DNA from: Mycobacterium simulans
GTDB taxonomy: Bacteria; Actinomycetota; Actinomycetes; Mycobacteriales; Mycobacteriaceae
Direction of reading: 5' to 3'
Assembly (NCBI RefSeq): GCF_900232995.1
Contig: NZ_OCVX01000005.1
Location: forward strand, 144,413-176,412
DNA length: 32,000 nucleotides
The notes below the pieces were generated by a model. The model was not told where the DNA came from. It saw only the letters and a program-made list of their open reading frames with translations, and did no database searches. A program made the position numbers and the translations under genes. Every line of letters begins with the position of its first letter. Within the stretch, counting starts at the first letter, position 1. Below are positions 9,035-27,803 of the stretch, piece after piece.

Positions 9035-9943
<909 letters not shown>

Positions 9944-10037
9944 CTAGGTTACCTGGCGCTTTATCGCCGCCGCGAGCGTGCGTGTTTGTTCAGCGACACG
10001 CCGCGCGGGCAGTACATTTTCGCACCGTCGCGGCGGG

Positions 10038-10790
10038 TCAGGCTTCGGTCGCCAGCGGACTAGTCGCGACCTCGGTGCCGTCGGCCAAGGTCGAAACCTC
10101 GAAGTCGGCGAACACCGCGGGCGCGACGTCGACGAGCTGGCGCAAGCACTCGATGGCTAGCCGCCGGATTTCGACGTCGGCGTGTTCGCTGGCGCGCACG
10201 GCGATGAAGTGCCGCCACGCCCGGTAGTTGCCGGTCACGACGATGCGAGTTTCGGTGGCATTGGGCAGCACGGCGCGAGCGGCCTGGCGTGCCTGCTTGC
10301 GGCGCAGCACTGCGTTTGGCTGATCAGCGAACTTGGCTTCCAGCTTGGCCAGCAGGTCGGTGTAGGTGGCTCGGCTGGCGTCGGCGGCTGCGGTCAGGAT
10401 CTGGCGCAGTTCGGGGTCGTCCTCCATGCCGGGCGGCATCACGACCTGCGAGTCTTTCTCGGGCACGTAGCGCTGCGAGAGTTGCGAATAGGAGAAGTGC
10501 CGGTGCCGGATTAGCTCATGAGTACACGATCGCGAGATGCCGGTGATGTAGAACGACACACCGGCGTGCTCAAGCACCGAGAAGTGTCCGACGTCGATGA
10601 TGTGCTTGATGTAGCCGGCGTTGGTGGCGGTCTTCGGATTGGGCTTGGACCAGCTCTGGTAGCAAGCCCGGCCGGCGAATTCGACGAGCGCGGAACCCCC
10701 TTCCGCGTCGGTTGTCCAGGGCACATCCGAGGGTGCCAAGAACTCGGTCTTGGCGATGAGTTGCACGCGCAGCGGCGCGGTCTTTGCCAC
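10038..10790 (-). CDS. thyX: Flavin-dependent thymidylate synthase ThyX
   Basis: 250 aa with the ThyX signature [14 protein letters not shown] (RHR...S motif). Syntenic with Rv2754c. Confidence 0.95.
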
Positions 10791-12399: not shown

Positions 12400-13287
12400 T
12401 CACCAATTCAGGCCTTCGCCCGGCGGTCCGATCACTACCTTGCGCGGATCTTGTTGGATAATACCAACTTCAAATGCGTTGTCGCTGTAGATCTCTGCAT
12501 CGCTCTCCTTACCCTCCCCGTCGAATGCGATTTCATTGATCCGCAACGCAGTGGTCCACTTCCATTGCGCCATCCGCTCAACAACATCGCGCACCGAGAC
12601 TTGGCATTCCGCACAGTCATCGCAGGCGCTGTCATCGTCGACCTCGGCGTGCGCCTCACATCGCTCGAATTCGGTCGTGTAAACGTAGCCAGGGTCCCAG
12701 AGGCGCCCGGATGGAGGCCAGTCGAGTTCGATCCACTGCCCTGGTTCCAAGCCGAAGATGTCGATCGCCTTTTCCATCGCCGCCTTCTTGTCGGCGTTCG
12801 TCCAAGGCACATTCGGTGCCAACGCGACGTCCTCGATCGGATGAGAACCGGCGTACTCGACGGGATCGCGGACGGGTGCGACGGCTACATGGGCAGCATC
12901 GGCGCGGTCATACCAGTGGATTGTGCTCATCTCTCCGGTGTCGATGCGCGCGGGGTCGTGCGGCTCGGTGAACTCCGATTCGCGATAGGCCCAGCCGTTA
13001 CGCAGCTCATGCACGAGCCTGCGGGGTAAGCGGCCAACGATCTCGCGTTCGATCACGATATCTTCGGCGCGGGCATGCGCATCCATTGCGGCATTTACTG
13101 CTTCGGCGCCGTGGATACCGTTGGGGGCCAGGTCGTCTGCCTCGTCCCAGATGTCGCCGGCGGTCCGCTCCCGCTCCATCCGCAGCCAACTGACATGCCG
13201 GTAACGGGCCTCGGCATCGGCAAACTGGGGATCGCGTAGGTACTTCTCCTGTACGGTCTCGAATGCGCGAAATAGCCGATCAATCAT
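12400..13287 (-). CDS. Hypothetical acidic protein with C-terminal Cys cluster, translationally coupled to hsdR (function unknown)
   Basis: 295-aa ORF. Its ATG (13287) lies inside the last hsdR codons (GATGATTGA, 8-nt overlap). GC3-rich codons. Visibly D/E-rich. CEAHAEVDDDSACDDCAEC gives a C-x11-C-x2-C-x2-C pattern. I recognise no family. Confidence 0.7.
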   Translation of the reverse strand: MIDRLFRAFETVQEKYLRDPQFADAEARYRHVSWLRMERERTAGDIWDEADDLAPNGIHGAEAVNAAMDAHARAEDIVIEREIVGRLPRRLVHELRNGWAYRESEFTEPHDPARIDTGEMSTIHWYDRADAAHVAVAPVRDPVEYAGSHPIEDVALAPNVPWTNADKKAAMEKAIDIFGLEPGQWIELDWPPSGRLWDPGYVYTTEFERCEAHAEVDDDSACDDCAECQVSVRDVVERMAQWKWTTALRINEIAFDGEGKESDAEIYSDNAFEVGIIQQDPRKVVIGPPGEGLNW

Positions 13288-16200
13288 CGTCTTCCCCCTT
13301 CCCGATGCGGCGTGCTCGCTCGGCGTACTGCGGTGCCAATGCCTCCATCTGCTCGATAACCAACTTGATCGCTTCAGGCTGTTTGTCCGGAGGGTATCTG
13401 TACTTCACCAGTAGGCGCTTGATCGAAGACCGAAGCTTCGCACGTACGTCGTCGCGCACCGTCCAGTCGGTCTTGGTGTCGCGCTGCATCACACCGACCA
13501 GTTCGCGTGCGATCTGGGCGAGCACGTCCTCACCCTGAAGCTCGACGGCAGACTCATTTTGTGCCACAGCGTCGTAGAACGCCAGCTCGTCACGCGACAG
13601 GGCCGGAGTGAAGCGCTTACCCCGATTACCTTCAGCCGCGACATCTTTAGCCATTGCGATAAGCTCAGCGATCACCTCGGCGGAGGTGAGCTGCTGATTC
13701 GTATAGCGGCGCATCAGGTCGGTGATCCGGTCGGAGAATGCTCGCTGCCGCACCACGTTGTTCTTCGTGGCCCCTCCGAGTTCCTGGGTCAGCACCGCGC
13801 GCAGCGCCTCGATCGCCAGATGCGGGTGCGCGGCAGCCTTGGCCTTGGCTTCAAAGTCGGGGCCAAGGTCGGACAGCGACGGTTTCGGCAAGCCCGCTGC
13901 CTGGTAGATGTCGAGGATTTCGCCCGACGCGGTCGATTCCGCGACGAGACTAGACAACAGCCGTTTGATCTCGTCCGGGATCGGTTTGCCCTCGGCCCGC
14001 CGCTGCTCGGCGTCGAACTTGCCCATCCACACCCGGACCTGTTCGTAGAACTTGATTGTCGGCCGCCGGGACTCCAGGGCTTCGTTTCCGTCACACAGCG
14101 ACCACGCGCGGGCCAGGTGATTGGCCAGCTTGCGGAACCGGTCCCCGACGGTTGGCTCCCCGTCGGGAACCTGGTTTCCTGGGTTGGATGGTGACCGCAA
14201 GTGCGCGGTGAGGCCGATTGCCGCCCTCATCCATCCATGTTGCGGCTCATTGGCTTTCGATCTCCAGTCATATCCCGCGCACAGCTCGTCGAGCTGGCCG
14301 ACAAGATCTGTCGTCAGCTTGACCGCCGTGTCGATGTCCTTGCCGACGGGCTTAGTGTTGCGGTCGGTCTCAGTGTATTCGGCGAGTGCCGCGGCCAGGT
14401 TCTCCGCCAACGGCGCGTACGCGACCAGCAGCCCAGACGGCTTGCCTCGGAACGTCCGGTTGACCCGCGCCAGTGTCTGCATCAGCAGCGCGCCCTTGAG
14501 GGGGCGGTCGAGGTAGAGCGTGTGCAGCGGCGGCGCGTCAAAGCCCGTGAGCATCATGTCCTTGACGATCACGATCTGCAGCTCGTCCTCAGCGTCACGC
14601 AGCCGCTTCTGTATCACCTTGTTCTCGCTTTCGCGGCGCACATGTTTGGCGATGTTCCCAGGGTCCTGTGGGGAACCGGAGTAGACGACCTTGATCACGC
14701 CTTTGTCGATGGTGTCGCCGTGCCAGTCTGGTCGCAGCTTGCGGATCTCCTCATACAGCTGCGCGCAGATCTGACGGGTGGCACCGACGATGAACGCCTT
14801 TCCCGGAGAGGAGATGAACTTGCGCATCCCCTCGGATCGCGCTGCCCAATGGTTGACTATGTCCTCGGCCAGCGCCGCCAGCCGCTCGGGTGCGCCGTAG
14901 ATGGCGTTGATGACTGCGACCGATTTTTCGATCTGGGCGCGCTCCACGTCGTCGAGCCCGAGGGTTGCCTCGTCGACCGCATGGTCGAGGTCTCCTTCGC
15001 TGAAGTCCTCGGACCAGCCGACTTTGGCCAGTCGAGGTTCGAAATACACTGGTACGGTGGCGTTGTCAGCGACGGCGCGGGTGAGATCGTAGACGTCGAT
15101 GTCGGGGCCGAACACGTCACGAGTGTTACGGTCGGAGAACGAGATTGGCGTGCCGGTAAACGCGATGAACACGGCGTTCGGCAGGGCGTCGCGGATGTGG
15201 CGGGCGTAGCCGTCAAGATCGTCGTAATGACTGCGGTGTGCCTCGTCGACGATCACAATGATGTTGCGCCGCTCGGTGAGCAACGGGTGGTCCGCTCCGG
15301 ATTCGCGCTCCTCCTTGGTAAGACGGAACTTCTGCAGGGTGGTGAAGTAGATGCCACCGGTAGTTCGGTTGGACAGTTCGTCACGCAGCTGCGAGCGCTT
15401 GGTCATCTTCTGCGGTGATTCGTCGAGCAGCCGTGAGCGGTTGAAGGTCTCAAACAGCTGGGAGTCGAGCTCCTTGCGGTCGGTGATGACGACGATGGTC
15501 GGGTTTTTCAGCTTGGGCTGTTTGGCGACCAGGTGCGCGTAAAGCTCCATCTCCATCGACTTGCCGGAGCCTTGCGTGTGCCACACGACGCCGGCCTTGC
15601 CGTTGCTCTCGGCGGCTTCCACCGTCTTCCATACGGCTTTGGTGACCGCAAAGTATTGATGAGGCTTGGCGATTCGCTTGACCAGCCCATCGCCGTCTTC
15701 GTCGAACGCCGTGAAGTTACGTAGCAGTTGCAGGAACCGCTCGGTGTTAAACAGCCCGTCGATGAGAGTCTCGAGAGCAATCGGAACGTTCTCGTCGGCA
15801 ACCGGCTCACCAATGTTCACCACACGGCCGTCGTCGTCGACGTTCCAAGGCGCGAAGTGCTCCAGCGGAGTGAACGGCGTCCCGTATCGAGCGGTAATAC
15901 CGTCGCTGATGACCGTCAGGACGGCGAAACGAAACGCCATCGGGAACTCTCGCAGATAGGTCTGCAATTGCGCGTGCGCGGCTGCGATGTCCGCGTGCGC
16001 TGAGCCGGCCTGCTTGAGTTCGAAGATGCCGACGGGCATGCCGTTGAGGTACAGCACGACGTCGAAGCGCCGCTGATGATCCGCGGTGCGAATTGTAACT
16101 TGTTGCACTGCAAGGAATTCGTTGTCCTCGGGCCGGTGGCTGGCCAGCCTGATGGTTGGGTTCTGCTCGATGCCGTCGGCGTCGATGTAGCTGATGCCGC

Positions 16201-16489
16201 GATATCCATCTACGAGGATCTTGTGTAGCCGGTAGTTCTCGGCGATCGCGTCCTGTGACAGCGGTTGGATGATCGCGGCGCGGGCCTGGTCGAGGTATTC
16301 GGCCGGCACATCGGGATTCAGTTCGCGCATCTTGGCAAGCATGCGTTCGGGCAAGACTGTGTCGTCCCACGACTGGCGGCCACCCTCAGCGCCCGGCGCA
16401 ATCTGTTTTCCCGTGAGTTTTTGCCATTCGCGTTCGCCGAGTGTGTCCAGCGCGAGTTGTTCCCAGTCAGCTTCGCGGAATCCGGTCAT
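13280..16489 (-). CDS. hsdR: Type I restriction enzyme R subunit HsdR (intact)
   Basis: 1069 aa. N-terminal nuclease motif FDVVLYLNGMPVGIFELK (D...ExK). SF2 motifs HTQGSGKS (I), VDEAHRS (II, DEAH), FTGTP (III), QTLARVNR (VI). HsdR-type C-terminal helical domain. Confidence 0.95.
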   Translation of the reverse strand: MTGFREADWEQLALDTLGEREWQKLTGKQIAPGAEGGRQSWDDTVLPERMLAKMRELNPDVPAEYLDQARAAIIQPLSQDAIAENYRLHKILVDGYRGISYIDADGIEQNPTIRLASHRPEDNEFLAVQQVTIRTADHQRRFDVVLYLNGMPVGIFELKQAGSAHADIAAAHAQLQTYLREFPMAFRFAVLTVISDGITARYGTPFTPLEHFAPWNVDDDGRVVNIGEPVADENVPIALETLIDGLFNTERFLQLLRNFTAFDEDGDGLVKRIAKPHQYFAVTKAVWKTVEAAESNGKAGVVWHTQGSGKSMEMELYAHLVAKQPKLKNPTIVVITDRKELDSQLFETFNRSRLLDESPQKMTKRSQLRDELSNRTTGGIYFTTLQKFRLTKEERESGADHPLLTERRNIIVIVDEAHRSHYDDLDGYARHIRDALPNAVFIAFTGTPISFSDRNTRDVFGPDIDVYDLTRAVADNATVPVYFEPRLAKVGWSEDFSEGDLDHAVDEATLGLDDVERAQIEKSVAVINAIYGAPERLAALAEDIVNHWAARSEGMRKFISSPGKAFIVGATRQICAQLYEEIRKLRPDWHGDTIDKGVIKVVYSGSPQDPGNIAKHVRRESENKVIQKRLRDAEDELQIVIVKDMMLTGFDAPPLHTLYLDRPLKGALLMQTLARVNRTFRGKPSGLLVAYAPLAENLAAALAEYTETDRNTKPVGKDIDTAVKLTTDLVGQLDELCAGYDWRSKANEPQHGWMRAAIGLTAHLRSPSNPGNQVPDGEPTVGDRFRKLANHLARAWSLCDGNEALESRRPTIKFYEQVRVWMGKFDAEQRRAEGKPIPDEIKRLLSSLVAESTASGEILDIYQAAGLPKPSLSDLGPDFEAKAKAAAHPHLAIEALRAVLTQELGGATKNNVVRQRAFSDRITDLMRRYTNQQLTSAEVIAELIAMAKDVAAEGNRGKRFTPALSRDELAFYDAVAQNESAVELQGEDVLAQIARELVGVMQRDTKTDWTVRDDVRAKLRSSIKRLLVKYRYPPDKQPEAIKLVIEQMEALAPQYAERARRIGKGEDDD

Positions 16490-17621
16490 TGGTCTTCCCC
16501 TTGGTGCATGAGGGTTTCGGGCTCGTCAGTCAGCTCGGCTTCGAGTTCTTCGACCGTCGGCAGGCTGGATTCGAGTTCGGCAGGCAGGCTCTCGGTGATG
16601 GCGGTCTTCCACTCGGCGACACCGATCGGCGCGGTATAGCCGCGAAGGGCGTACTCGGCCACCACATTGTTCTTCGTTTTGCACAACAGCAGCCCGATGG
16701 TTGGCTTGTCGTCGGCATGCCGAGCAGCAGGTCGTCCACCGCGGCCATGTAAGTACCGAGTTGTCCCAGATAGCTGGGATCGAAATCGCCGACCTTCAAT
16801 TCGATTACGACGAAGCAGCGCAGATTCAGGTGGTAGAAGAGGAGCTCGGTGTAGAAGTCGGCGTCTCCGATTTCGAGGTGAACCTGCTTTCCCACGAAGG
16901 CGAACCCTCGCCCGAGTTCGAGCAGGAATCGTTCGACGCGGTCGATCAGCGCGCGTTCGAGGTCGCGCTCGCGTCGGAAGTCGGCGGTGCCGACGAAGTC
17001 GAACAGGTAGGGATCGCGGGCGGATTGCTGGACCAGATGGGAGTCCGGCGGGGGGATGGTGCGGGTGAAGTTTGTGATCGCGCGGCCGGCCCGTTCGTGG
17101 AACCGTCCCTCGATGTGGTGGACGAGGACGTTATGGCTCCATCCCTGCTCGACGGCGGCCTGGGCATACCAAAGTCGTAGGTCGGCACTGTTTAGCTTCT
17201 CCAGCAGCGCGATGTGATGGCGCCAGGGCAATTGTGCAAGCGGCGCTTGCACTTTGTCCGCCCGCGCAGCGGCGAAGGCTCTCATGTACTCGAGGTTGCG
17301 CGGTGAGAACCCCGAGGTGCCCAGGAACCGTTCACGCGGGTCGGCGGCCAGCCGATCGATGACCCGGGCTCCCCAGCCTTCGGTGTGTTGACGGGCGAGG
17401 ATCTCCGCAGCCACGGCCCAGGTTGTGCTGACGAGTTCCTGGTTGGCCGCCGATACCGCGCGTTGGCGTCCGGTTCGGACGCACGCGGCAACAGCGTCGA
17501 GCAGTTCGGGGTACCAGTCCGGGATGGTGGCCCGGGTGGGCGGCACCGGGAATCGGGCGTCTGCGCCGGCCCACGTCGGCCGCTCGTCGCGCTCGGTCAT
17601 CGCGCTCTCCGCAGTGCTCAC
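16486..17621 (-). pseudogene. DUF1016/YhcG-family PD-(D/E)xK nuclease, interrupted by a 1-nt frameshift near 16719-16735
   Basis: The 363-aa frame carries LFYHLNLRCFVVIELKVGDFDPSYLGQLGTYMAAVDDLL and then turns into junk (GMPTTSQPSGCCCAKRR...). The family continuation RHADDKPTIGLLLCKTKNNVVAEYALRGYTAPIGVAEW...LPTVEELEAEL is in another frame (the 66-aa ORF 16486-16686) and ends in an ATGA overlap with the hsdR start. Confidence 0.8.
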
Positions 17622-18781
17622 AGCACCTCGCTCACCGCGGCCTCGGCGTCCTTGACCCGGACCCTACCGGACATCAAGAGCGGGAGGAGTTCATCGCGAG
17701 TGCGCGCGAGCACTCGCGACTCTTTCCGCCGCTCATGGCACACCTGCCCGAGACCGGCGACCAACCCAGTCAGGTCAGGGCTCAGTTCGCGTACGTCCCG
17801 CACTTGGATGCCAAGCAAGTCATGGGGCCTTATCCGTTGATGGCTGCCAGATGTACCAGCGACCTTCTGCCGCAACTCTTCTGAGATTTCGGGCTGAGAC
17901 AACGCAGCCCACAGCAATGATGCGTCCACGGCGACGGACGTGAGGACGACGAACTCCGTACTTGCTAGCGGCATCTCCATGGGGAGTTCGCAAACGTTCC
18001 AAATACGAGGTATTCGCGGATTCAACTTGGAGAACAATACACACGGTTCTGACAGAGCAAATTTATTGCTCTTGATGGTTTTGCCATGAACGATCTCAGG
18101 CACAGCGCCGGCATCGAACGCCGGAAGACTAAAATGCGCAACGGAATCCCCGAACTGCTCAGGATAACGCGACGTGGTCGATTGACTCGCCAGAATGGAC
18201 AGCGGTGCGAACGCGGTAACCGAGTTGACAGTCGCGAACATTAGTGCCACTGCTGCCTCGACAACACGTTCGTTCGCGACGATCTTGTCATCGATGACGC
18301 CCAACACTTCTGCGATCGCCCGTTGTTCCTCAAACGAGGGCGCAGGAATCCGCACTTTGCGCAGTTCCGGTTGACGGATTCCGAGCACAGTTGTCCCGGT
18401 AGCCCGTGATGCCAGGTCAGCCTGGACATGGTCTGTCTGGAAGGCGTAGTAGAGGTACCGACTGTCAAGCTTTCCTGCAAGACCGCGCATGCAGAAGACG
18501 CGCTGCCCAATGACGATTGGTTCGTCGGTCCGAACCAACGCAACACGACCCAGCGGCGCCTCACTCGTCAGGACTACGTCGTTCGGTTCGGTCGGCCTGG
18601 GCATCCACTCCTTCCAGGTGTCGATCGAGGCGGTATTAGCAGCGGTTAGATCGAGACGACCCGCCCGAACCGACATACCGGAGACGACCGGGACGCCCGC
18701 CGGGCTGAATGGCGGGTTCTTTCCACGATTGTCGATCAATAGCTCGAGCGATTCGCCGAGAATTAACGAATCGGTTTTCAT
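17618..18781 (-). CDS. hsdS: Type I R-M specificity subunit HsdS (two TRDs)
   Basis: 387 aa. Central conserved helix EEQRAIAEVLGVIDDKIVANERV and C-terminal ESRVLARTRDELLPLLMSGRVRV. ATGA overlaps with hsdM (18778-18781) and with the DUF1016 gene (17618-17621). Confidence 0.9.
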   Translation of the reverse strand: MKTDSLILGESLELLIDNRGKNPPFSPAGVPVVSGMSVRAGRLDLTAANTASIDTWKEWMPRPTEPNDVVLTSEAPLGRVALVRTDEPIVIGQRVFCMRGLAGKLDSRYLYYAFQTDHVQADLASRATGTTVLGIRQPELRKVRIPAPSFEEQRAIAEVLGVIDDKIVANERVVEAAVALMFATVNSVTAFAPLSILASQSTTSRYPEQFGDSVAHFSLPAFDAGAVPEIVHGKTIKSNKFALSEPCVLFSKLNPRIPRIWNVCELPMEMPLASTEFVVLTSVAVDASLLWAALSQPEISEELRQKVAGTSGSHQRIRPHDLLGIQVRDVRELSPDLTGLVAGLGQVCHERRKESRVLARTRDELLPLLMSGRVRVKDAEAAVSEVL

Positions 18782-20397
18782 GACAACCGCTCCAGTTGCT
18801 CTCGGACCACCTTCTCCAACCGTGCCGACTCGTCGAACGCTGTTAACAGCTCTTTCGTCAGCCGCGCAATCTTCTCGTCGACAGGCTCGCCGTCGTCCTC
18901 AGCCTCTGGTGCACCCACATACCGACCCGGCGTCAGCGCATAGTCAGCAGCTTTGATCTCCGCTAAAGTGCTCGAATTGCAGAAGCCCGGAATATCCTCG
19001 TAGGTAAGGCCTTTCGCCGCCGCAGACGCCGATCCCCGCCAAGCGTGATAGGTGTCGCCGATCCGGACGATTTCCTCGTTCGTCAGCGCGCGCTCCGCGC
19101 GGTCCACCATGTAGCCCAGCTCCCGTGCGTCGATGAACAGCACCTGGCCGGCCCGGTCGGTCGAACCCTGTTTACCGGGCGTCTTGTCTTTGGCGAAAAA
19201 CCATAGACACACCGGGATTCCGGTGCTACGGAATAGCTGCGTCGGCAGCGCGACCATGCATGACACCAAATCCGCTTCGACAATCTGCGCCCGAATGTCG
19301 CCCTCGCCGTTGGAGTTCGACGACATTGAACCGTTGGCCATCACCACGCCCGCCTTGCCGCCCGGACCCAGCTTGGACAGGATGTGTTGGATCCACGCGT
19401 AGTTCGCGTTGTTGGCGGGCGGGACGCCGAAGCGCCAGCGCGGGTCTTCCTCATTTCGCGACCAGTGCTTGATGTTGAACGGCGGATTGGCCATCACATA
19501 ATCCATCTGCACGTCCGCATGCTGGTCGCGAGCGAAGGTGTCACCCCACCGCGCGCCCAGGCCCTTGTTGTCGATCCCATGAATGGCGAGGTTCATCTTC
19601 GCCATCCGCCAGGTCTCCTCGATGCTCTCCTGGCCGTAGATCGAGATGTCCTTCGGGTCGCCGTCGTGTTCGTAGATGAACTTCTCGGTCTGCACGAACA
19701 TGCCGCCGGAGCCACAGCACGGGTCGTACACCCGTCCCCGCGACGGCTCGAGCATCTCCACGATCACCTTGACCACGCTGGGCGGCGTGAAGAACTCTCC
19801 ACCGCGCTTACCTTCCGCGCGAGCGAAATTCCCGAGAAAGTATTCGTACACCTCTCCCATCAGGTCACGGGCGCGATGCTCACCTTGGCGGCTAAATCGT
19901 GCACTGTTGAAGAGGTCGATCAGTTCACCGAGCCGGCGCTGATCGATGTTGTCCTTGTTGTACAAGCGTGGCAGCGTTCCGCCCAGCGTGGGGTTGGCCT
20001 TCATCACCGCGTCCATTGCCTCGTCGATCAACTGCCCGACGTTCTTCGCAAGCTCGTCGCCAACCGCCGGTTTGCCTTTCGCGTTCTCCGCCAGGAACTT
20101 CCAGCGCGCGTTCGGGGGTACCACGAACACCCCGTAGCCCTGGTACTCTTCAGGCTCGTCGATCAGGTCCTCGATCTGAGACTCGTCCATCCCATCGGCG
20201 GCCAGTTCGGTTCGAATAGCTTCTCGCCGTTCGTCATACGCGTCCGACACGTATTTGAGGAACACCAGCCCCAAGATCACGTCCTTGTATTGGCTGGCCG
20301 AGAGAGACCCGCGCAGCTTGTCGGCGGCCTTCCAGAGCGTGTCCTTGAGCTGTTTCATGGTCGACGGCGCTTGCGGCTCCTTGTTCCTGGGAGGCAT
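18778..20397 (-). CDS. hsdM: Type I R-M N6-adenine DNA methyltransferase HsdM
   Basis: 539 aa. HsdM N-domain LWKAADKLRGSLSASQYKDVILGLVFLKYVSD, SAM motif VYDPCCGSGGMF, catalytic NPPF (VMANPPFNIKHW). RBS GGAAGGAA upstream of the ATG at 20397. Confidence 0.95.
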   Translation of the reverse strand: MPPRNKEPQAPSTMKQLKDTLWKAADKLRGSLSASQYKDVILGLVFLKYVSDAYDERREAIRTELAADGMDESQIEDLIDEPEEYQGYGVFVVPPNARWKFLAENAKGKPAVGDELAKNVGQLIDEAMDAVMKANPTLGGTLPRLYNKDNIDQRRLGELIDLFNSARFSRQGEHRARDLMGEVYEYFLGNFARAEGKRGGEFFTPPSVVKVIVEMLEPSRGRVYDPCCGSGGMFVQTEKFIYEHDGDPKDISIYGQESIEETWRMAKMNLAIHGIDNKGLGARWGDTFARDQHADVQMDYVMANPPFNIKHWSRNEEDPRWRFGVPPANNANYAWIQHILSKLGPGGKAGVVMANGSMSSNSNGEGDIRAQIVEADLVSCMVALPTQLFRSTGIPVCLWFFAKDKTPGKQGSTDRAGQVLFIDARELGYMVDRAERALTNEEIVRIGDTYHAWRGSASAAAKGLTYEDIPGFCNSSTLAEIKAADYALTPGRYVGAPEAEDDGEPVDEKIARLTKELLTAFDESARLEKVVREQLERLS

Positions 20398-20411: not shown

Positions 20412-22283
20412 CTATCTCTGGGCCGCGGCAACGCCGGGTGTGGTGGGTTGGGCATCAAGGGTGAGGGCGCCGGCGGCGACCCCCTCGATCAGGGCGGTCT
20501 TGAGATTTCGCGCGGCGTCGGCCCGCCGGCGCGCTTCGCGTTCGAACTCGTCAACCCGCTTAAGCGCCTCTTCGAGCCGTGCCGCCTCGTCACGGCGCAT
20601 CGCCGGAATGCTCCACGTTTTCCATTCGCTTCCCGCTGAGGCCATTTCGTTGATCACCGTGGCGAGCACCACCGGTCCGATCTCGGCCGATTCGCGCAAG
20701 CGGATGATTCGTGCGGGCGACGCGACCATGGCGCCGCCAACCGGGTCAACCCACGCCCGCGGGCGCGGCTTCTCGATGAAGATCACGTCGCCGGGGTCGG
20801 TGCGGGCCGCGCGCGGATACTTGCGCGCCGCGTCGAACGCGTCGAGGGCGATCGCTCCGGCAATTTCGGCGGGTAACACCGGAACCGTCCCGTCGGGCGA
20901 GGCGTCAGCGAAATTGATTCTGCTGCCACGCTTGACGGCGACGTGCTTGCGTTCGTGAAGCTCGCCGAGGGACTGGTGCAACAGCCGGAATCGCCCTGGC
21001 GAAGGTTCCACCAACACGTCCAGCGGCTCCAACGGTGATGTCGTCGTCAGCGTTGCGGCGTGCACGCGATCCAGGTGTGCGGTCGGGTCCGCTTCGCGCA
21101 GTCTTGGCGCGCGCACCCCGCGCGGTACTACCGAACCCGCGGCCAGCACGTTGCCCAGCTCGACGCGGCGAGCGTACCGGAAGGCGCGATCGTCAGTCTG
21201 CGCCAATGCCCCTGCGATGTCAGCCGCAATATCGCTGCGCTCAAGATTCTCGACGGCGCCCAGGTCGGCAACCCAGGGCCGCTGAGCATTGGCACCTCCC
21301 AGGCATATCCACGCCGCGAGGCTCTGCCGGTGCGCCTCTCGCCACAATCCACGCGGAAGTCGGAGTGCGGCAACCAAATTGCCAACCCGCAATGTCCGTG
21401 CGCGACGTTGCTGCAGAGTTCCCGCAAGCTCATCGGTCAGCGCGGCGGCGGGACCGAATAACCCCGTCACGTCGCCTTCGCTCAACGCGACGACTCCTTC
21501 GTCAGCACGGTCGAGCGCGTCTGCAATCTCCAAGCCGATAACGGATGACACCGAGATGCTAGACCGCGCGGTTGCCTCGTTGACGGCGATCCCGCGGATC
21601 ATCGCCCTGCGCCGAAGGGCGCGGTTGTTCGACACGATCTCAAGGTCGCATGCCGCGGCTATATCAAGCGAAACCGGTGAGTCGTCCGCCCGCATAATGA
21701 CCGGCTCGTGGTCGAGGTGCGTGGCCGCCGCCCCAACGATCCAGCCGAGCGACTCCACGGCGGCCGGTGTGAGCTCACGCGCACCTAGCACCCGCTTCAG
21801 ACGTCCTTGCTCCAAGCGCGCCAACGCGTCGGGCGGGCCGAACGACGCCTCCACCAGATCGTCGATGTAGCTGAGCACCGCGTCCGATGCCCGTAACCCG
21901 CGGATCTCACGCAGCAGCGAAACATCATCGGGGTCGAAACGCTCCGCCCGTCGCACCCGGTGAGCCAACGACGTGCCCCCGAGTTCTTCTCCGGTGACGA
22001 CATGCCAGCACAGCAGCGTCACCACGTCTTCCAGCTCCGCGCCGTGGGGCGCAGCAACCGCGGGTGCGTCATAGCTGTGTTCGGAGTTGTTGCCGCGGCT
22101 CGTGCGCGTCAGCCAGTCGACGACCTCATCGCGTGCGAACCTCGCGACACCGTCGATGACCTCCACTGGTTCCGGGAACGGAATCGACACGCCGCGAACG
22201 ATTGGCCTCTTTCGCCACATGCTGACCACAGGCCGGCGTACCTTTGCAAGGTCGGCGACGTCCTGCAACGTCAGCGTGTTCAC
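20412..22283 (-). CDS. Hypothetical 623-aa protein: N-terminal Xis/MerR-like HTH, degenerate (motif-less) gamma-MTase-like core, single TRD-like domain and C-terminal helix. First gene of the R-M operon
   Basis: GTG at 22283 preceded by GAGAGGAG. The stop is 14 nt before the hsdM ATG. HTH: MNTLTLQDVADLAKVRRPVVSMWRKR...ARFARDEVVDWL. MTase-like strings lack the SAM and NPPF motifs (see findings). TRD-like: GDVIFIEKPRPRAWVDPVGGAMVASPARIIRLR. The CDS call is solid; the domain reading is by eye. Confidence 0.75.
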   Translation of the reverse strand: MNTLTLQDVADLAKVRRPVVSMWRKRPIVRGVSIPFPEPVEVIDGVARFARDEVVDWLTRTSRGNNSEHSYDAPAVAAPHGAELEDVVTLLCWHVVTGEELGGTSLAHRVRRAERFDPDDVSLLREIRGLRASDAVLSYIDDLVEASFGPPDALARLEQGRLKRVLGARELTPAAVESLGWIVGAAATHLDHEPVIMRADDSPVSLDIAAACDLEIVSNNRALRRRAMIRGIAVNEATARSSISVSSVIGLEIADALDRADEGVVALSEGDVTGLFGPAAALTDELAGTLQQRRARTLRVGNLVAALRLPRGLWREAHRQSLAAWICLGGANAQRPWVADLGAVENLERSDIAADIAGALAQTDDRAFRYARRVELGNVLAAGSVVPRGVRAPRLREADPTAHLDRVHAATLTTTSPLEPLDVLVEPSPGRFRLLHQSLGELHERKHVAVKRGSRINFADASPDGTVPVLPAEIAGAIALDAFDAARKYPRAARTDPGDVIFIEKPRPRAWVDPVGGAMVASPARIIRLRESAEIGPVVLATVINEMASAGSEWKTWSIPAMRRDEAARLEEALKRVDEFEREARRRADAARNLKTALIEGVAAGALTLDAQPTTPGVAAAQR

Positions 22284-22350
22284 GGGCGCGGCGCTCCTCT
22301 CGGCATCGGATCGAATGTAGACCCTTCTCGGTCATCATTCAATGACATCT

Positions 22351-22370
22351 CTGATAAGCCGGCTTATCAG
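22351..22370. promoter_or_regulatory. Perfect 20-bp palindrome CTGATAAGCCGGCTTATCAG in the divergent promoter region (operator candidate)
   Basis: The sequence equals its own reverse complement. It lies in the 176-bp AT-enriched spacer between the 623-aa gene (start 22283, minus strand) and the 476-aa gene (start 22460, plus strand). Confidence 0.55.
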
Positions 22371-22459
22371 TATTCCAGTTGCATTCGATCTACAGACCTG
22401 CGGATCCTGTCTGCGGCGCAATACCGCACTCGGCGGTGGCGAGAAATCGAGGAGTAGCC

Positions 22460-23890
22460 GTGAACCACCCGCAGCGACAGGCATATTTCGACGAGACGAC
22501 GACCGCGGTCGTGATCGAAGGACTTACCGTGCGGGACAAGGACGTTGCGCGTGAGGCGCAACGCTGGACAACCGGTGCGCGAGGCCCGATCGTCGAGGAT
22601 CCCGACACGCTCAAGGCTGCCGATCTTTCGGAGTTCGTCGCCGAAGCGGTCAAGATCGGCGCGCATGCGCTGTCTGTGACTGGCCAGGCCCAGGAATCAC
22701 GAATGGTGGAGCAGATGCTGAAGGACGTCGGCGAGAAGGCGGCGGATTCGACTGCCAAGGCAGCCGAGGTCACCGAACGTGCGGTTAAGTCGGCATCCGA
22801 AATCATGGCAAAAGCCGCCAACGAGGCCAGGAAGGCAATCACCGAGGCCGATGCCACCAGCCGAAAGGAATTCACCGAATCGGTCGCGGCGGCCAAGAAT
22901 GACCTCAACGCCGAGGTGCGCCGCATGTTCGGCGGCGAACGCCCGGAGCTGCTGGACCGCCTGCAGCCCGTGCTCGACAAGTTCGCCACCGACCTCGACG
23001 CCAAGGTGAAGGCCGGAACCAGCGATCTGTTGACCAAGGCAGCCAAGCAATTCGACCCCACTGACCCCACCTCACCGATGGCGAAACATGCTGCGGATCT
23101 CGGGGCACGGCAAGAGAAGCTGACCGAGCTGATCGACAAAAACCACGCCGACGTAGTCAAGAAGGTCGACGAGCTGCTGACCACCCTGAAGGTTCAGGAC
23201 GCCAAAGCCAGCCTCGCCAAAGTCACGCCGATCAAAGGCGACACCTTCGAGAACCAGATCAACACCGTGCTCTCGGCGATTGCCGTCGGCCTCGGCGACG
23301 AGTACACCGATACCCGCGCGATCGTCGGATCGGTGGCCCGGTCGAAGAAGGGCGACGGCGTCTTGCATGTGGACGGCGACGCCGCCCGCGTGGTGATCGA
23401 GATGACTGACTCGGCGCGCGCCGGCTGGGCCGAGTACTTCGACGAAGCCGAGCGCAACCGCCTTGCCGTGGCTGCGCTCGGCGTCGTACGGACGAGCGAG
23501 CAGAACGGCGGCCAGTCCATCCGCACGCTCGGCGCTCGACGCATCGTGCTCGCGTTCGACCCCGGGTCAGATGATCCCGAGCTGGTGCGCACCGTCGTCA
23601 TGCTTCTGCGGACGGTCGCGCTCGCGGCGGCGACACGAAAAGGTGCGCACCAGATCGCTACGGCGGAGGAGAAAATCACCGAGGCCATCGCGCAGCTCAC
23701 TCGCTTGGACGAGGTGAAGAAGACCGCCGGGTCGATTCAGAAGAGCGCCATGAAGGTCGAAAATTCCTGCACCGGAATCAATTCCGGAATCCAGCGGTTG
23801 CTCAACGACGCACTGGCCGCCTTGACCGACGCGAACCCTGACACGGAGCCCGGTTCGACTGAAGGTCCAGTGCCCAACGCAGTCGCATAG
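22460..23890 (+). CDS. Hypothetical 476-aa protein: long Ala/Lys/Glu-rich helical (coiled-coil/apolipoprotein-like) N-terminal half, RmuC/DUF2130-like restriction-endonuclease-fold C-terminal half
   Basis: GTG at 22460 preceded by GAGGAG (22449-22454). Strong GC3 bias in this frame. C-terminal pattern KGDTFENQINTVL...KKGDGVLHVDGDAARVVIEMTDSARAGWAEYFDEAERNRLAVAALGVV. The upstream part of the 503-aa ORF has no RBS or coding look. Confidence 0.75.
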   Translation: MNHPQRQAYFDETTTAVVIEGLTVRDKDVAREAQRWTTGARGPIVEDPDTLKAADLSEFVAEAVKIGAHALSVTGQAQESRMVEQMLKDVGEKAADSTAKAAEVTERAVKSASEIMAKAANEARKAITEADATSRKEFTESVAAAKNDLNAEVRRMFGGERPELLDRLQPVLDKFATDLDAKVKAGTSDLLTKAAKQFDPTDPTSPMAKHAADLGARQEKLTELIDKNHADVVKKVDELLTTLKVQDAKASLAKVTPIKGDTFENQINTVLSAIAVGLGDEYTDTRAIVGSVARSKKGDGVLHVDGDAARVVIEMTDSARAGWAEYFDEAERNRLAVAALGVVRTSEQNGGQSIRTLGARRIVLAFDPGSDDPELVRTVVMLLRTVALAAATRKGAHQIATAEEKITEAIAQLTRLDEVKKTAGSIQKSAMKVENSCTGINSGIQRLLNDALAALTDANPDTEPGSTEGPVPNAVA

Positions 23891-24158: not shown

Positions 24159-25310
24159 CTAGCCTCGGCGCACGATCAGCGCGACTGTGCGTTCGCTCTT
24201 GATATTGAGGCTCATGGTAGAGGGGTCTCGTTTTTCGGGTAGATCATCTGCCGCGTGGACATGCCCGTACATCAACAGCGGAAGAAGTGCATCGCGACGC
24301 GCCGACAACTGTGCGGATTCGGTTCGTCGCCCATGACACAACGCACCTAGGCTCGCGATTGCGCGCGCCGGCCCGGTAGCCAACCGCCGCACATCTCGCA
24401 CTCGGGTCTGCAGGAGTTCGTGGGGTTGGATTCGTTGGCGGCTTCCTGTCACGCCAGCAACCCGCTGATGGATAGTTGCCAAGACATCGGGTTGTCGTAG
24501 CGCTGACCACAAAGCGGAAGTATCAACGCCAAGTGGCCTCAGTACTACGAATTCCGTACTGGCCAAGGCCATTTCCGACGGCAGGCACGTAATATTCCAG
24601 ACTCGTGGGATTCTCGGATTCAACTTCGGGAATAGTACACACGGCTCCGACAAAAGGAACTTGGCGCTCTTGATTGTTCGACCGTCAACATGGCTTGGCT
24701 GGGTGCCGTCATCGAACGCCGGAAAGCTGTAGTGAGCGACTCTGCCGTCGAATTTCGGCGGAGAAAGATATGCGGTTGACCTCCTCGCCAAGCTCGACAA
24801 GGTCGCATAGTCACTGACTTGCTCGACTATCGCAACCATCAGCTTCTCGGCGGCCGCGATAACGCGGTCGTTAGTCGCTATCTTGTCGTCTAAAGCACCG
24901 AGAATTGCGCCAATTCGACGGCGGTCAGGTGCGGCGGCAGCCAGGACCACAACATTTCGAAGGATGCTCTGACTCAGCAGAGGCTGTCCCGACCCGGCGC
25001 GATATCGATTAAGTCCGCAGCTCTGCAGCGCGTAATACCAATATCGTGTTTCCTCGGGGTATTTGGCCCGGCAAACCAGCGCATTGTCGGTGACCCACGC
25101 ATCCGAATCGCAATAGCGCACGCTACCGCAATACGAACCAACCCGACCCACGACTATCAACGGGCCCTGCGCATTGCGTTCGGCCGCATACCCGATTGCC
25201 CCGTTGGCGCCATAGATGGGATAGCGACCGTGGGGCCCTCGCACTCGCGGAGTGCTTCCACAGGAAAAGTCGACGTGGTCACCCAAACGCACTTTCACCG
25301 CGCTGGCCAT
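24159..25310 (-). CDS. hsdS: Second, orphan type I specificity subunit HsdS (two TRDs, divergent C-terminus)
   Basis: 383 aa. Central helix DRRRIGAILGALDDKIATNDRV. TRD2 is paralogous to TRD2 of the hsdS at 17618-18781 (roughly 60% identical by eye); TRD1 is unrelated. The start ATG overlaps the ycaQ-like stop by 1 nt (TGATG). The C-terminus LLPLLMYGHVHAADD... departs from the usual LLPLLMSGRVRV. Confidence 0.85.
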   Translation of the reverse strand: MASAVKVRLGDHVDFSCGSTPRVRGPHGRYPIYGANGAIGYAAERNAQGPLIVVGRVGSYCGSVRYCDSDAWVTDNALVCRAKYPEETRYWYYALQSCGLNRYRAGSGQPLLSQSILRNVVVLAAAAPDRRRIGAILGALDDKIATNDRVIAAAEKLMVAIVEQVSDYATLSSLARRSTAYLSPPKFDGRVAHYSFPAFDDGTQPSHVDGRTIKSAKFLLSEPCVLFPKLNPRIPRVWNITCLPSEMALASTEFVVLRPLGVDTSALWSALRQPDVLATIHQRVAGVTGSRQRIQPHELLQTRVRDVRRLATGPARAIASLGALCHGRRTESAQLSARRDALLPLLMYGHVHAADDLPEKRDPSTMSLNIKSERTVALIVRRG

Positions 25311-26524
25311 CAGCCGGCCCGCTTGGTGGCCGTTCGCAACTCCACGGCCAGATCACCTCGGCTGGACACGGTGATCCCGCCCAGCCCCAACCATGACGCC
25401 ATCGACTCCAGCTCTGCTGTAAGAGCGTCGGCGACCCGGGCACCCGGTGCATCGGACTCGCCGAACGCGCCCACCACGTGCAGCGTGTTCGCGGCACGGT
25501 CGGCCTTGAGATCCACCCTCGCCACCAGCTGTCCGTCCAGCAGCAGCGGCCACACGTAATAGCCGTACTGTCGCTTTTTTGCGGGGGTGTAGATCTCGAT
25601 GCGGTAGTGAAAGCCGAACAGCCGCTCTACCCGGGGCCGGAAGAAGATCAACGGGTCAAACGGACACAACAACGCGGTGCCGCGATCCAGCCGTGGCACC
25701 GTCCGGCCTGCCCGCAGATAGGCCGGGGCCGACCAGCCCTCGACGCTCACCTTCTCAATCTCACCCGCGGCAACGAGGTCGGCGATAGCCGGTTTGATCT
25801 GCTGGGCCGACAACCGAAAGTAGTCGCGGATGTCGGCCTCGGTGCCCACACCCAGCGCGGTGGCCGCCCGCAGTGTGAGCTCGCGGACGGCTTCGTCGTC
25901 GTCGACCTGCCGGGCCAGCACGGCTGGCGGCAGCACCCTTTCCACCAGGTCGTAGTGGCGTGCGAAGCCGACCCGGGTGGCGGTGGTGAGCACCCCGGAT
26001 GCGAACAACGCCTCGGCGACCCACTTGGTGTCACTGCGCCCCCACCAGGGACCCTTAGCGCCACGGGGCTCGGCCTCCAGATGGGCCTCGATCTGCCCGG
26101 CGGTACTGGCCCCGAGTTCGGTGACGGCGGCGACGATATCGTCGGCCAGCTGCGGGTTGGCCTTGACGATCTGGGTGCCCCAGCGGCCGTGCCGGTACTG
26201 GCGCATCCGCCAGCGCAGAAGTGGCCAGTCGTCCACGGCCATCAACGCGGCCTCGTGCGCCCAGTACTCGACCAACAGCCGCGTCCTTGACGAGCCCCAC
26301 GCGGCCCGGTCCAGCACGTCGCGGTCATATGGCCCGAGCCGGCTGAACACCGGCGCATAGTGGGCACGCACCGCCACCGACACCGAATCCAGCTGCAGCA
26401 CCTGGATGCGCGAGATCAGCCGCTTGAGATGGGCACGGGTGATCGTGCCGGCCGGTTTGGGCTCGGCGAAACCTTGTGCCGCGATCGCCACCCGACGGGC
26501 CTGCGCGGCGGTCAAGGTGCTCAT
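25310..26524 (-). CDS. YcaQ/AlkZ-family (HTH_42, DUF1006) winged-helix protein, putative interstrand-crosslink DNA glycosylase
   Basis: [19 protein letters not shown]...[29 protein letters not shown]...[12 protein letters not shown] is typical of the family, including a Q-phi-D (QLD) motif. The ATG at 26524 overlaps the dfrA stop (ATGA); the longer ORF start at 26578 is rejected. Confidence 0.8.
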
Positions 26525-27006
26525 CGCCGCCGATAGCTGTGAAACCGGTACCGCAGCCCGGAGCGGGCGACGAGCCACTCCCCCGTCTCGCGCCGCCAGG
26601 TCTCGTCGAGCACGGGCGCGAGGGCGTCGTCGTCAACCTGCGGAAGGTCGATGTCGATCTCCGTGACTTCACATCGGGTGGCTTGCGGCAGTGCCAGCCG
26701 ATAGATCTGCGCCCCGCCAACGACCCACGTCTCGGGCTCGGTCAGGGCATCTTCGAGTGAACCGACTACCTCTGCTCCGTCAGCCATGAAGTCAGTCTGA
26801 CGGGTCAGTACGACATTTCGGCGGCCGGGCAGCGGCCGAAACCTCGCCGGCAAAGATTCCCAGGTCAGTCGGCCCATCACCACCGTGTGGCCCATAGTGA
26901 CCTGTCTGAAGTGCGCCAAATCCTCGGGCAGCTGCCACGGGATACCGCCCGCGCGGCCAATGACACCGGACGTCGACTGAGCCCAGATCAGGCCCAAGGT
27001 CGTCAT
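26521..27006 (-). CDS. dfrA: Dihydrofolate reductase
   Basis: 161 aa. [48 protein letters not shown] is the DHFR signature. 4-nt overlap with the thyA stop. Confidence 0.95.
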
Positions 27007-27803
27007 ACGGCTACGGGCGCTTTGATCGCCGGATGCGGGTGGTAGTTGTTGACGACGATGTCGTCGTACGTGTAGTCGAAGATCGAATCCCTAGGGGCCA
27101 GAACGAGTTCCGGATACGGCCTCGGTTCGCGCGTGAGCTGCAGCCGAACCTGATCGACGTGGTTGTCGTAGATGTGACAGTCGCCGCCAGTCCAAATGAA
27201 TTCGCCGACGTCCAGGCCGGACTGTGCGGCCATCATGTGCGTGAGCAACGCATAGCTGGCGATATTGAACGGCACGCCGAGAAACAGGTCGGCGCTGCGC
27301 TGGTAGAGCTGGCAGCTGAGCCGACCGGCGGCGACATAGAACTGGAAGAAGGCGTGACACGGCGGCAGCGCCATCTGCGGGATCTCTCCGACGTTCCAAG
27401 CCGACACGATGATCCGCCGGGAATCGGGCTCGGTGCGCAGCAAATCGAGCGCCGCGCTGATCTGGTCGATATGCTCACCCGACGGGGTCGGCCAGGACCG
27501 CCATTGCACGCCATAGATTGGGCCGAGATCGCCTGTGTCGCTGGCCCATTCGTCCCAGATGGTGACTCCATGTTCGTGTAGCCAGCCGACGTTGGAGTCG
27601 CCGCGCAGGAACCACAGCAACTCGTAGACCACCGACTTGAAATGCACTTTTTTGGTGGTGAGCAGAGGGAAGCCGGCGGACAAGTCGTAACGCAGTTGCC
27701 GGCCGAACAGGCTGCGGGTTCCGGTGCCAGTGCGGTCGGATTTCACCGCGCCCGTGTTGAGTACCAGACGCAGCAGATCCTCATAGGGAGTGGCGATCGG
27801 CAC
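27003..27803 (-). CDS. thyA: Thymidylate synthase ThyA
   Basis: 266 aa, GTG start. [25 protein letters not shown] (catalytic Cys) and [16 protein letters not shown] motifs. Confidence 0.95.

Follow-up and report, generated by a model that had tools for sequence, protein, structure and literature searches.

Control of type I restriction-modification (R-M) systems is usually described as post-translational, ClpXP-dependent restriction alleviation being an example. Here, we explored a 32,000-nucleotide (nt) stretch of the Mycobacterium simulans genome (contig NZ_OCVX01000005.1, positions 144,413 to 176,412 of the forward strand; hereafter, the window, to which all coordinates refer unless a locus is named) in which a type I R-M operon is headed by a gene, here denoted X, for a 623-amino acid (aa) protein that joins a predicted helix-turn-helix (HTH) domain to what appears to be an inactivated modification-specificity (M-S) methyltransferase (MTase). 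Our analysis suggests, with a probability of roughly 75%, that X is a dimeric, operator-binding controller of the R-M operon built from a pseudo-methyltransferase. Dedicated transcription factors for type I R-M systems are only just emerging, with RptR described in 2025 (PMC12255303).

Several described systems resemble X in one or another respect. The MTases M.SsoII and M.Ecl18kI are portrayed, in the accounts drawn on here, as binding an inverted-repeat operator between their own, divergent R-M genes through an extra N-terminal region and thereby coordinating transcription (PMC3978073, PMC2760811). X, likewise, combines an MTase fold with an additional N-terminal region that is predicted to bind DNA. 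However, M.SsoII and M.Ecl18kI are active C5 MTases of type II systems, whereas X is an N6-type, HsdM-like M-S fusion without catalytic motifs and belongs to a type I system with its own separate, active HsdM. C-proteins, as outlined in the respective sources, are dimeric HTH proteins that are encoded upstream in the operon and act autogenously on a palindromic box upstream of their own promoter (PMC2175313; PMC12255303). X shares with them the position of first cistron in an R-M operon and a conserved palindrome at a fixed distance from its own putative promoter. Unlike the C-proteins, which are of ~80-100 aa, Xre-type and use paired C-boxes, X consists of 623 aa, has an Xis/MerR- or Cro-like HTH (the Pfam search found no HTH_3 match for X) and is associated with a single operator of 16-20 bp that would be common to two divergent promoters. 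RptR is a small, all-helical autorepressor encoded by the first open reading frame (ORF) of gammaproteobacterial type I R-M/defence islands, with TAGCTA repeats overlapping the -10 box (PMC12255303). X is similarly the first ORF of a type I operon with a conserved short palindromic site, but it is found in Actinomycetota and carries a whole, apparently dead M-S module, and the site, GATAAG-N4-CTTATC rather than TAGCTA, seems to lie upstream of the -35 element. Profile searches with X and with its HTH against PDB chains yielded no regulator above noise, the presence of RptR in the PDB copy used being unconfirmed.

The remaining counterparts concern the M-S body. The engineered half-HsdS EcoR124I-NT, which comprises one target recognition domain (TRD) and one conserved-region (CR) helix, dimerises and reads the symmetric bipartite sequence GAAN7TTC (PMC2877798). 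The order of domains in X, MTase, TRD, helix, is that of the BpuSI-type IIG enzymes, CamA and M.BseCI, as judged by structure comparison with Foldseek; these enzymes, however, are active and carry their specificity in the TRD, whereas the covarying, presumably specificity-bearing element of X is the added HTH. Finally, the Ronin decoy system, hsdS-hsdM-ronA, employs a canonical HsdM and HsdS with a 61-aa toxin and no hsdR (bioRxiv 10.1101/2023.04.06.535777). As with X, a type I-derived module has been repurposed there for a non-restriction role beside defence genes, but Ronin includes neither an HTH nor a dead fusion protein. As we reconstruct it, X works like the SsoII and Ecl18kI MTases, the C-proteins and RptR, and is a member of none of these groups.

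A family of type I partners in Actinomycetota

X heads six tightly packed genes on the minus strand, namely, X, hsdM, hsdS, a DUF1016/YhcG gene, hsdR and a 295-aa ORF (Table 1). Translation starts from a GTG at 22283, with the ribosome-binding site GAGAGGAG at 22294-22301, and the 14-nt gap between the end of X and the hsdM start at 20397, pointed out in a first-pass annotation made from the bare sequence, was confirmed. The protein is identical to "hypothetical protein MSIMFI_03907" of M. simulans.

A word-indexed search retrieved 293 homologues of ~620 aa, all named ones of which are labelled "hypothetical", and an exhaustive profile search retrieved 997 clusters at 50% identity; E is below 1e-30 for 411 of these. 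The 150 matches listed all have E <1e-74; most of these are full-length (~620-700 aa) and align with X from end to end, and about one-fifth are shorter fragments. X has no match above threshold in Pfam, NCBIfam, PADLOC or PHROGs; both a 44-sequence profile of X and an HTH-only profile returned only noise from PDB chain sequences, and literature searches found no description of the family. X is a kind of restriction-system regulator, as we interpret it, that is absent from all the databases searched: ~1000 clusters at 50% identity across Actinomycetota, many of them from mycobacteria, are covered by no library that we searched, and the family offers an explanation for the recurrent "hypothetical protein" ahead of hsdM.

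The arrangement in which X is followed directly by hsdM-hsdS-(DUF1016)-hsdR recurs across 48 genome loci and further metagenomic contigs, with representatives in Mycobacterium, Nocardia, Gordonia, Amycolatopsis, Pseudonocardia, Micromonospora, Frankia, Nocardioides and Cryobacterium. From Mycobacterium to Cryobacterium, hsdM lies immediately downstream of X in ~43 of 46 loci; X is a dedicated partner of the type I system. One metagenomic locus (L091, 7891 onward) displays, in the stretch fetched, X-hsdM-hsdS followed by a Schlafen/AlbA_2 plus HATPase_c_4 gene in the usual place of hsdR. Among the viral contigs searched, no relative of X was found.

A probable pseudo-methyltransferase fused to a predicted HTH

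The AlphaFold2 (AF2) model of X, built on a 44-sequence alignment, has a mean predicted local distance difference test (pLDDT) score of 87.4. When compared with the PDB using Foldseek, it matched DNA N6-MTases only: the best match (E 4e-16) was chain 7eew_A, a type I MTase of V. vulnificus, and the others included the type IIG MTase-TRD enzyme BpuSI (E 3e-12), the MTase-TRD proteins CamA and M.BseCI, and the HsdM subunits of five systems (3lkd, 2okc, 2y7c, 7bst and 5ybb; E 8e-10 to 1e-6), with alignments to full-length HsdM chains of 420-650 columns. According to the model, X has a class I Rossmann-like MTase fold preceded by an HsdM-type N-terminal helical domain. Comparison of X with HsdM using hhalign, either with a single HsdM or with a six-sequence HsdM alignment rebuilt from the PDB matches, produced one collinear alignment that is not significant (E 0.08-0.4). 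This alignment pairs ELTP, VIMRADDSP, NNRALRRRA, SSVIGLE, VTGLFGPAA, LRLPRGLW and WVADL of X with FFTP, VYDPCCGSGG, EETWRMAKMN, ANPPFNI, AGVVMANGS, ALPTQLF and LFIDA of HsdM, respectively. Because the match to HsdM is at noise level as sequence, the MTase assignment rests on structure.

The C-terminal part of X, residues 434-616, aligns with TRD1 and CR1 of a 45-sequence HsdS profile from related loci (hhalign probability 94.9%, E 4.7e-8) and with the second HsdS half, TRD2 and CR2 (E 2.7e-5). Profile comparison thus indicates that X ends in a true half-HsdS, one TRD followed by one spacer helix. Judging by the model and hhalign, X differs from a full HsdS in having a single TRD, which is not hypervariable, and a single CR helix. 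Given that a half-HsdS of this layout forms dimers (PMC2877798) and that the putative operator is palindromic, the long C-terminal helix is probably, by analogy, a dimerisation element.

Residues 1-61 adopt a beta-alpha-alpha-beta-beta-alpha topology in the AF2 secondary structure. Profile matches of this region are weak and of the same kind: PHROG 4745, "DNA binding protein" (E 2e-3), PHROG 66, "excisionase and transcriptional regulator" (E 5e-3), a weak match to Pfam HTH_17 (PF12728) for one homologue of X only (E 0.011), and Cro-type HTH chains of the PDB (E ~1). The HTH is the most conserved part of X, with V15, R17, W23, R24, R26, F36 and P37 invariant. The layout read by eye in the first-pass annotation, an Xis/MerR-like HTH, a centre alignable with HsdM, a single TRD and an HsdS-like spacer helix, holds up: the topology of the N-terminus fits in the AF2 model and its profile matches, though weak, are consistent; hhalign recovers the same HsdM blocks collinearly, with the fold search in support; the TRD is matched by HsdS; the predicted helix is aligned to CR1 and CR2; and the model comparison matches HsdM and type IIG enzymes at E 4e-16 to 1e-6.

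All the motifs expected of an active enzyme that we looked for are missing from X. The glycine-rich S-adenosylmethionine (SAM) loop (D/E-P-x-x-G-x-G-G) was not found, and the segment aligned to it, VIMRADDSPVSL, is devoid of glycine; where motif II would supply its acidic residue, X has SNN; and no (D/N/S)PP(F/Y/W) tetrapeptide occurs anywhere in the protein, with SSVIGLE at the position of NPPF. When 44 close relatives and 52 distant ones (as low as 27% identity) are aligned, the positions of motifs I and IV rank with those that show the least conservation. Other parts of the body are constrained: three arginines of the MTase-like domain do not vary (R221, R294 and R308), the same domain has the conserved basic motif RLPRGLWREAHRQ (residues 308-320), and G498, D499 and P523 are invariant in the TRD framework. 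Most likely, then, X is catalytically dead, having lost both SAM binding and methyl transfer, as the first-pass annotation had surmised from the replaced SAM loop and the missing NPPF/DPPY-type motif; its broader description of X as a non-canonical, inactivated MTase-TRD fusion with an added HTH at the head of a complete type I operon is upheld by the Foldseek matches, the hhalign results and the missing motifs.

These observations bear on the idea that X is simply a second MTase, or else partners HsdM and HsdR as an alternative specificity subunit. Such a role would suit the MTase and TRD folds, and one of the 52 relatives has a sub-threshold match to Pfam N6_Mtase (PF02384; E 0.015). However, this is the best match in the set, none of the 52 members reaches the threshold of that family, the SAM-loop, motif II and NPP(F/Y) positions are free to vary, and an intact hsdM and hsdS lie directly downstream. 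Moreover, the TRD of X has a mean pairwise identity of 52%, and HsdS from the same loci one of 27%; because its TRD is conserved and HsdS diverges, X is not tracking the specificity of the system. We consider this possibility hardly credible. The same disparity argues against the suggestion of the first-pass annotation that X might be an alternative specificity subunit and leaves its further suggestion, that X senses modification status, without support: a protein with a constant TRD cannot track a changing specificity.

A conserved putative operator between putative divergent promoters

Upstream of X lies a perfect 20-bp palindrome, to which the first-pass annotation had already drawn attention. 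Its core, GATAA-N6-TTATC, occurs once in the window, with 0.08 occurrences expected when one mismatch is allowed, and the full form, GATAAG-N4-CTTATC, or a symmetric variant of it, is located at the same place in ~50 actinobacterial loci. Of 47 loci of 20 kb each, 40 have a single GATAA-N6-TTATC, invariably upstream of X at a distance of 70-150 nt, and the operator-bearing loci include those with X relatives of only 27-30% identity. Of the 7 loci that lack GATAAG, 6 have symmetric variants at the corresponding place, namely, GAGAAG-N4-CTTCTC (four loci) and GTTAAG-N4-CTTAAC (two loci). The arms are conserved and the spacer varies freely. In viral contigs, the operator pattern was matched 32 times, which by our rough estimate is about the chance level for 16 specified bases.

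In most loci, a homologue of the same 476-aa gene is located divergently upstream of X, and the one operator is common to both genes. The operator is retained in loci without the 476-aa gene; where hsdM is separated from X (L036 and L049) or the divergent gene has moved (L022), the displaced gene has its own operator copy ~90-110 nt upstream, that of the relocated 476-aa gene lying at 20508 of L022. In Nocardia camponoti (L036), ~6.9 kb separate X from hsdM, and an identical 21-nt operator copy is found at 16044-16064 and at 18620-18640, the second being 111 nt upstream of hsdM; this arrangement looks like an insertion accompanied by duplication of the promoter-operator module.

Conservation around the operator suggests two back-to-back promoters. 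In 44 of 51 loci, a TAnnnT lies toward X at 33-35 nt from the operator core, and in 34 of 51 the other side, facing the divergent gene, has an nAnnnT at a distance of 34 nt; TTG occurs ~11 nt out from the core on both sides. The operator would thus be centred near -53.5 of each putative promoter, ~10 nt upstream of both -35 elements. In the window, a 9-nt inverted repeat, GATCGAATG / CATTCGATC (22309-22317 and 22382-22390), flanks the operator and overlaps the putative -10 element of the X promoter and the putative -35 element of the divergent promoter; no clear conservation of this repeat is apparent in other loci.

In the 476-aa protein, long coiled coils are combined with an alpha/beta domain in the centre, which includes the motif KKGDG...VVIEMTDS...EAERNR; no HTH and no Pfam family were detected in it. 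Its AF2 model is poor (pLDDT 58), and Foldseek matches of the model are non-significant. Matches suggesting an XisH-like or SMC-like protein were at E ~1 or worse, which we do not regard as evidence, and the label "Fis family transcriptional regulator" that NCBI attaches to this protein in many genomes is unsupported, given that neither an HTH nor a Pfam family was detected.

Covariation of the recognition helix with the operator

We aligned 45 full-length X proteins and sought columns that are uniform within an operator-variant group and unseen in the 39 proteins with GATAA operators. Only 5 of the 623 columns proved group-specific, and three of these correspond to residues 16, 18 and 19, where the predicted recognition helix begins. 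Test loci were then added, selected by their HTH sequence alone, and the covariation held in the predictions tested on them. The helices VSRPAVSQWR (P0150) and VTRPAVSQWR (P0145) were accompanied by GTTAAG operators; VTRQAVTNWR (P0136, P0158) by a fourth operator type, GTTTAG-N4-CTAAAC; and VSRPVVSMWR (P0121) and VERPVVSMWR (P0180) by GATAA. Overall, residues 16, 18, 19, 21 and 22 of X covary with the operator: A19 is paired with T at half-site position 2, GTT(A/T)A (6 of 6 loci); H18 with G at position 3, GAGAA (4 of 4 loci); and T21/N22 with T at position 4, GTTTAG; with S16 or E16 in combination with V19, GATAA is kept. Four of these helix-operator pairings were contributed by the test loci added later. 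These correspondences amount to what may be a readable recognition code, with residue 19 assigned to half-site base 2, residue 18 to base 3 and residues 21-22 to base 4.

The operator persists without the 476-aa gene, the 476-aa protein has no detectable HTH, and the operator variants track the helix of X; for these reasons, X is very probably the protein that binds the operator. Accordingly, of the functions contemplated in the first-pass annotation, that of a sequence-specific controller analogous to a C-protein appears strongly supported by sequence comparison, and the palindrome it had named turned out to be conserved across loci and to covary with the recognition helix. We also considered a dimer of TRDs as the operator reader, since GATAA-N6-TTATC resembles a symmetric type I site, and rejected it because the conserved columns that track the operator variants are found only in the HTH helix.

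Alternatively, the palindrome might not be the site of X and might instead form an RNA or DNA hairpin or serve a host factor or the 476-aa protein. Symmetric compensatory changes would preserve hairpin potential as well, and NCBI labels the 476-aa protein a Fis family regulator in many genomes. However, the arms are conserved in sequence rather than merely in complementarity, the palindrome lies upstream of both putative -35 elements and so would not be transcribed from them, and the operator variants follow the recognition helix of X; the absence of the 476-aa gene from loci that retain the operator, together with the lack of a detectable HTH in its product, speaks against that protein. All things considered, a palindrome unrelated to X appears very improbable.

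Several observations weigh against X as the operator-binding controller. The locus L005 has X and no operator. A scan for the generic sigma-70 consensus found no promoter, both promoters having been placed from conservation alone. At ~-53.5, the operator overlaps neither the -35 nor the -10 element, so that simple repression is not self-evident. The assignment of the HTH to a family by profile is weak (E 1e-3 to 1). Finally, the operator variants occur in few clades, and the independent covariation events number ~3 to 5. With regard to L005 (Ca. Mycobacterium methanotrophicum, 9840-10000), it is the sole locus in which an intact X (84% identity) is accompanied by neither the operator nor the divergent gene; other sequence takes the place of its upstream region and includes an unlike inverted repeat, GGCTATCCGCC...GGCGGATAGCC.

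A model of X function

We propose that X descends from a single-chain, type I-like M-S methyltransferase, with an HsdM-like body and half an HsdS, in which SAM binding and catalysis would have been lost and a winged HTH acquired at the N-terminus. The protein would dimerise via the HsdS-type spacer helix, as half-HsdS proteins do, and the dimer would set two recognition helices on the two half-sites of GATAAG-N4-CTTATC, controlling both the X-hsdM-hsdS-(DUF1016)-hsdR promoter and that of the 476-aa gene. By acting on its own promoter and on the divergent one, X would autoregulate and coordinate the whole system. With the operator upstream of -35, either sign of regulation is conceivable: a clamp of 136 kDa could repress sterically, X could activate in the class-I manner, or perhaps both modes occur, as in C-proteins. 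For the dead M-S body, candidate roles are dimerisation and DNA clamping, binding of HsdR or HsdM, and service as a decoy for DNA-mimic anti-restriction proteins. If this model is correct, a whole M-S methyltransferase has been recycled as a pseudo-enzyme regulator, the operator and its promoters are a candidate module for mycobacterial genetics, and X is a candidate link between restriction, the divergent gene of obscure function and, possibly, sensing of anti-restriction proteins.

The last of these roles can be developed into an extension, not a replacement, of the regulator model. Under this scenario, X is a dead replica of the type I core that acts as a decoy or guard: phage DNA mimics such as Ocr and ArdA or another ligand, binding to the dead M2S-like dimer, which would still have the DNA-binding groove that such mimics target, or else an imbalance of HsdR versus M2S, would release or reposition the HTH pair, flipping it on or off the operator, so that both the R-M operon and the 476-aa gene are switched on upon infection. 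The M-S body has been conserved over ~1000 clusters even though it is apparently dead, its MTase-like domain retains the three invariant arginines and the basic motif noted above, the TRD is constrained rather than diversifying, the operator seems to control a second, non-R-M gene, and use of HsdMS as a decoy has been documented for Ronin (bioRxiv 10.1101/2023.04.06.535777). The body could, however, serve for dimerisation and non-specific DNA clamping only, and the 476-aa protein has no established effector function. We therefore regard the sensor function as an unlikely, tentative addition to the model; if true, it would be considerably more interesting, as a decoy-guard wired directly to transcription.

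The other interaction of the body that can be envisaged, with HsdR or HsdM, would make X an assembly or restriction-alleviation factor that mimics M2S1 and buffers free HsdR in an unmethylated host, the HTH providing self-feedback only. X has the full M-S layout on which HsdR docks, it is translated first in the operon, and its constant ligands could be HsdM and HsdR, which are unusually conserved in these loci, with 77-95% identity for HsdM, even where that of X is only 44-50%, and 65-90% for HsdR. Yet conservation and covariation in X are strongest in the HTH and not in the body, and the operator shared with the divergent gene would be left unexplained, which makes a role confined to assembly quite doubtful.

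Genomic neighborhood

Features of the locus are collected in Table 1.

Table 1. Features of the X locus in the M. simulans window; functional elements of X and of the intergenic region are predicted
Feature	Position	Strand	Basis and remarks
Gene X (HTH, HsdM-like, TRD, spacer helix), first cistron	20412..22283	-	ORF and translation
Winged HTH domain, predicted	22080..22283 (residues 1-68)	-	AF2 secondary structure, weak profile matches
HTH recognition helix VRRPVVSMWRKR, predicted	22206-22241 (residues 15-26)	-	Model
Helical domain corresponding in position to the HsdM N-terminal domain, predicted	21789..22079 (residues 69-165)	-	All-helical in model
Class I MTase-like Rossmann domain lacking SAM-loop and catalytic motifs	21084..21788 (residues 166-400)	-	Foldseek, collinear hhalign
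Single HsdS-type TRD	20604..20984 (residues 434-560)	-	hhalign; framework motifs PGDV(I/V)F and ARI(I/L)RL; conserved, not hypervariable
Long helix homologous to the HsdS conserved-region (coiled-coil) helix	20469..20603 (residues 561-605)	-	Helix 564-603 in model; aligned to CR1 and CR2
Putative operator, perfect 20-bp palindrome CTGATAAGCCGGCTTATCAG	22351..22370	.	Core GATAA-N6-TTATC at 22353-22368
Putative promoter of the X operon	22314..22342	-	-35 TTGAAT 22337-22342, 17-nt spacer, -10 TACATT 22314-22319
Putative promoter of the divergent 476-aa gene	22379..22408	+	-35 TTGCAT 22379-22384, 18-nt spacer, -10 GATCCT 22403-22408
476-aa gene (w503, P0268)	22460..23890	+	Coiled coils and central alpha/beta domain
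hsdM, intact N6-adenine MTase	18778..20397	-	Pfam N6_Mtase (E 1e-117) and HsdM_N; motifs DPCCGSGG and NPPF
hsdS, specificity subunit with two TRDs	17618..18781	-	Pfam Methylase_S, PADLOC Specificity_I
DUF1016/YhcG PD-(D/E)xK nuclease gene	16530..17621	-	Pfam YhcG_C and DUF1016_N; PADLOC PDC-S02 (E 6e-104)
hsdR, restriction/translocase subunit	13280..16489	-	Pfam HSDR_N, SWI2_SNF2 and T1RH-like_C; TIGR00348 (E 6e-141)
295-aa ORF	12400..13287	-	Overlaps hsdR stop by 8 nt; no family match

The hsdS start overlaps the hsdM stop by 4 nt, and the DUF1016/YhcG gene, which sits between hsdS and hsdR with overlapping stop and start codons, is present in a subset of the related loci only. Homologues of the 295-aa ORF follow hsdR in L005, L012, L013 and L017 (44-71% identity over the matched pieces), and an operator-like site with one mismatch, GATAACCAACTTGATC, is located at 13355-13370, within the end of hsdR and ~70 nt 5′ of the start of this ORF.

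The R-M island is flanked by thyX (10038-10790) and dfrA/thyA (26521-27803), and the surrounding region otherwise consists of housekeeping mycobacterial genes. M. tuberculosis has hsdM and hsdS at the equivalent position between thyX and dfrA/thyA, where neither X nor hsdR is known to occur. In the window, the thyA-dfrA gene string also includes an orphan second hsdS (383 aa) directly after a gene for an AlkZ-like DNA glycosylase (24159-26578, minus strand); the same pair of glycosylase and orphan hsdS genes is found in L009, L011, L034 and L048. Given this additional hsdS, one HsdM may serve two S subunits.

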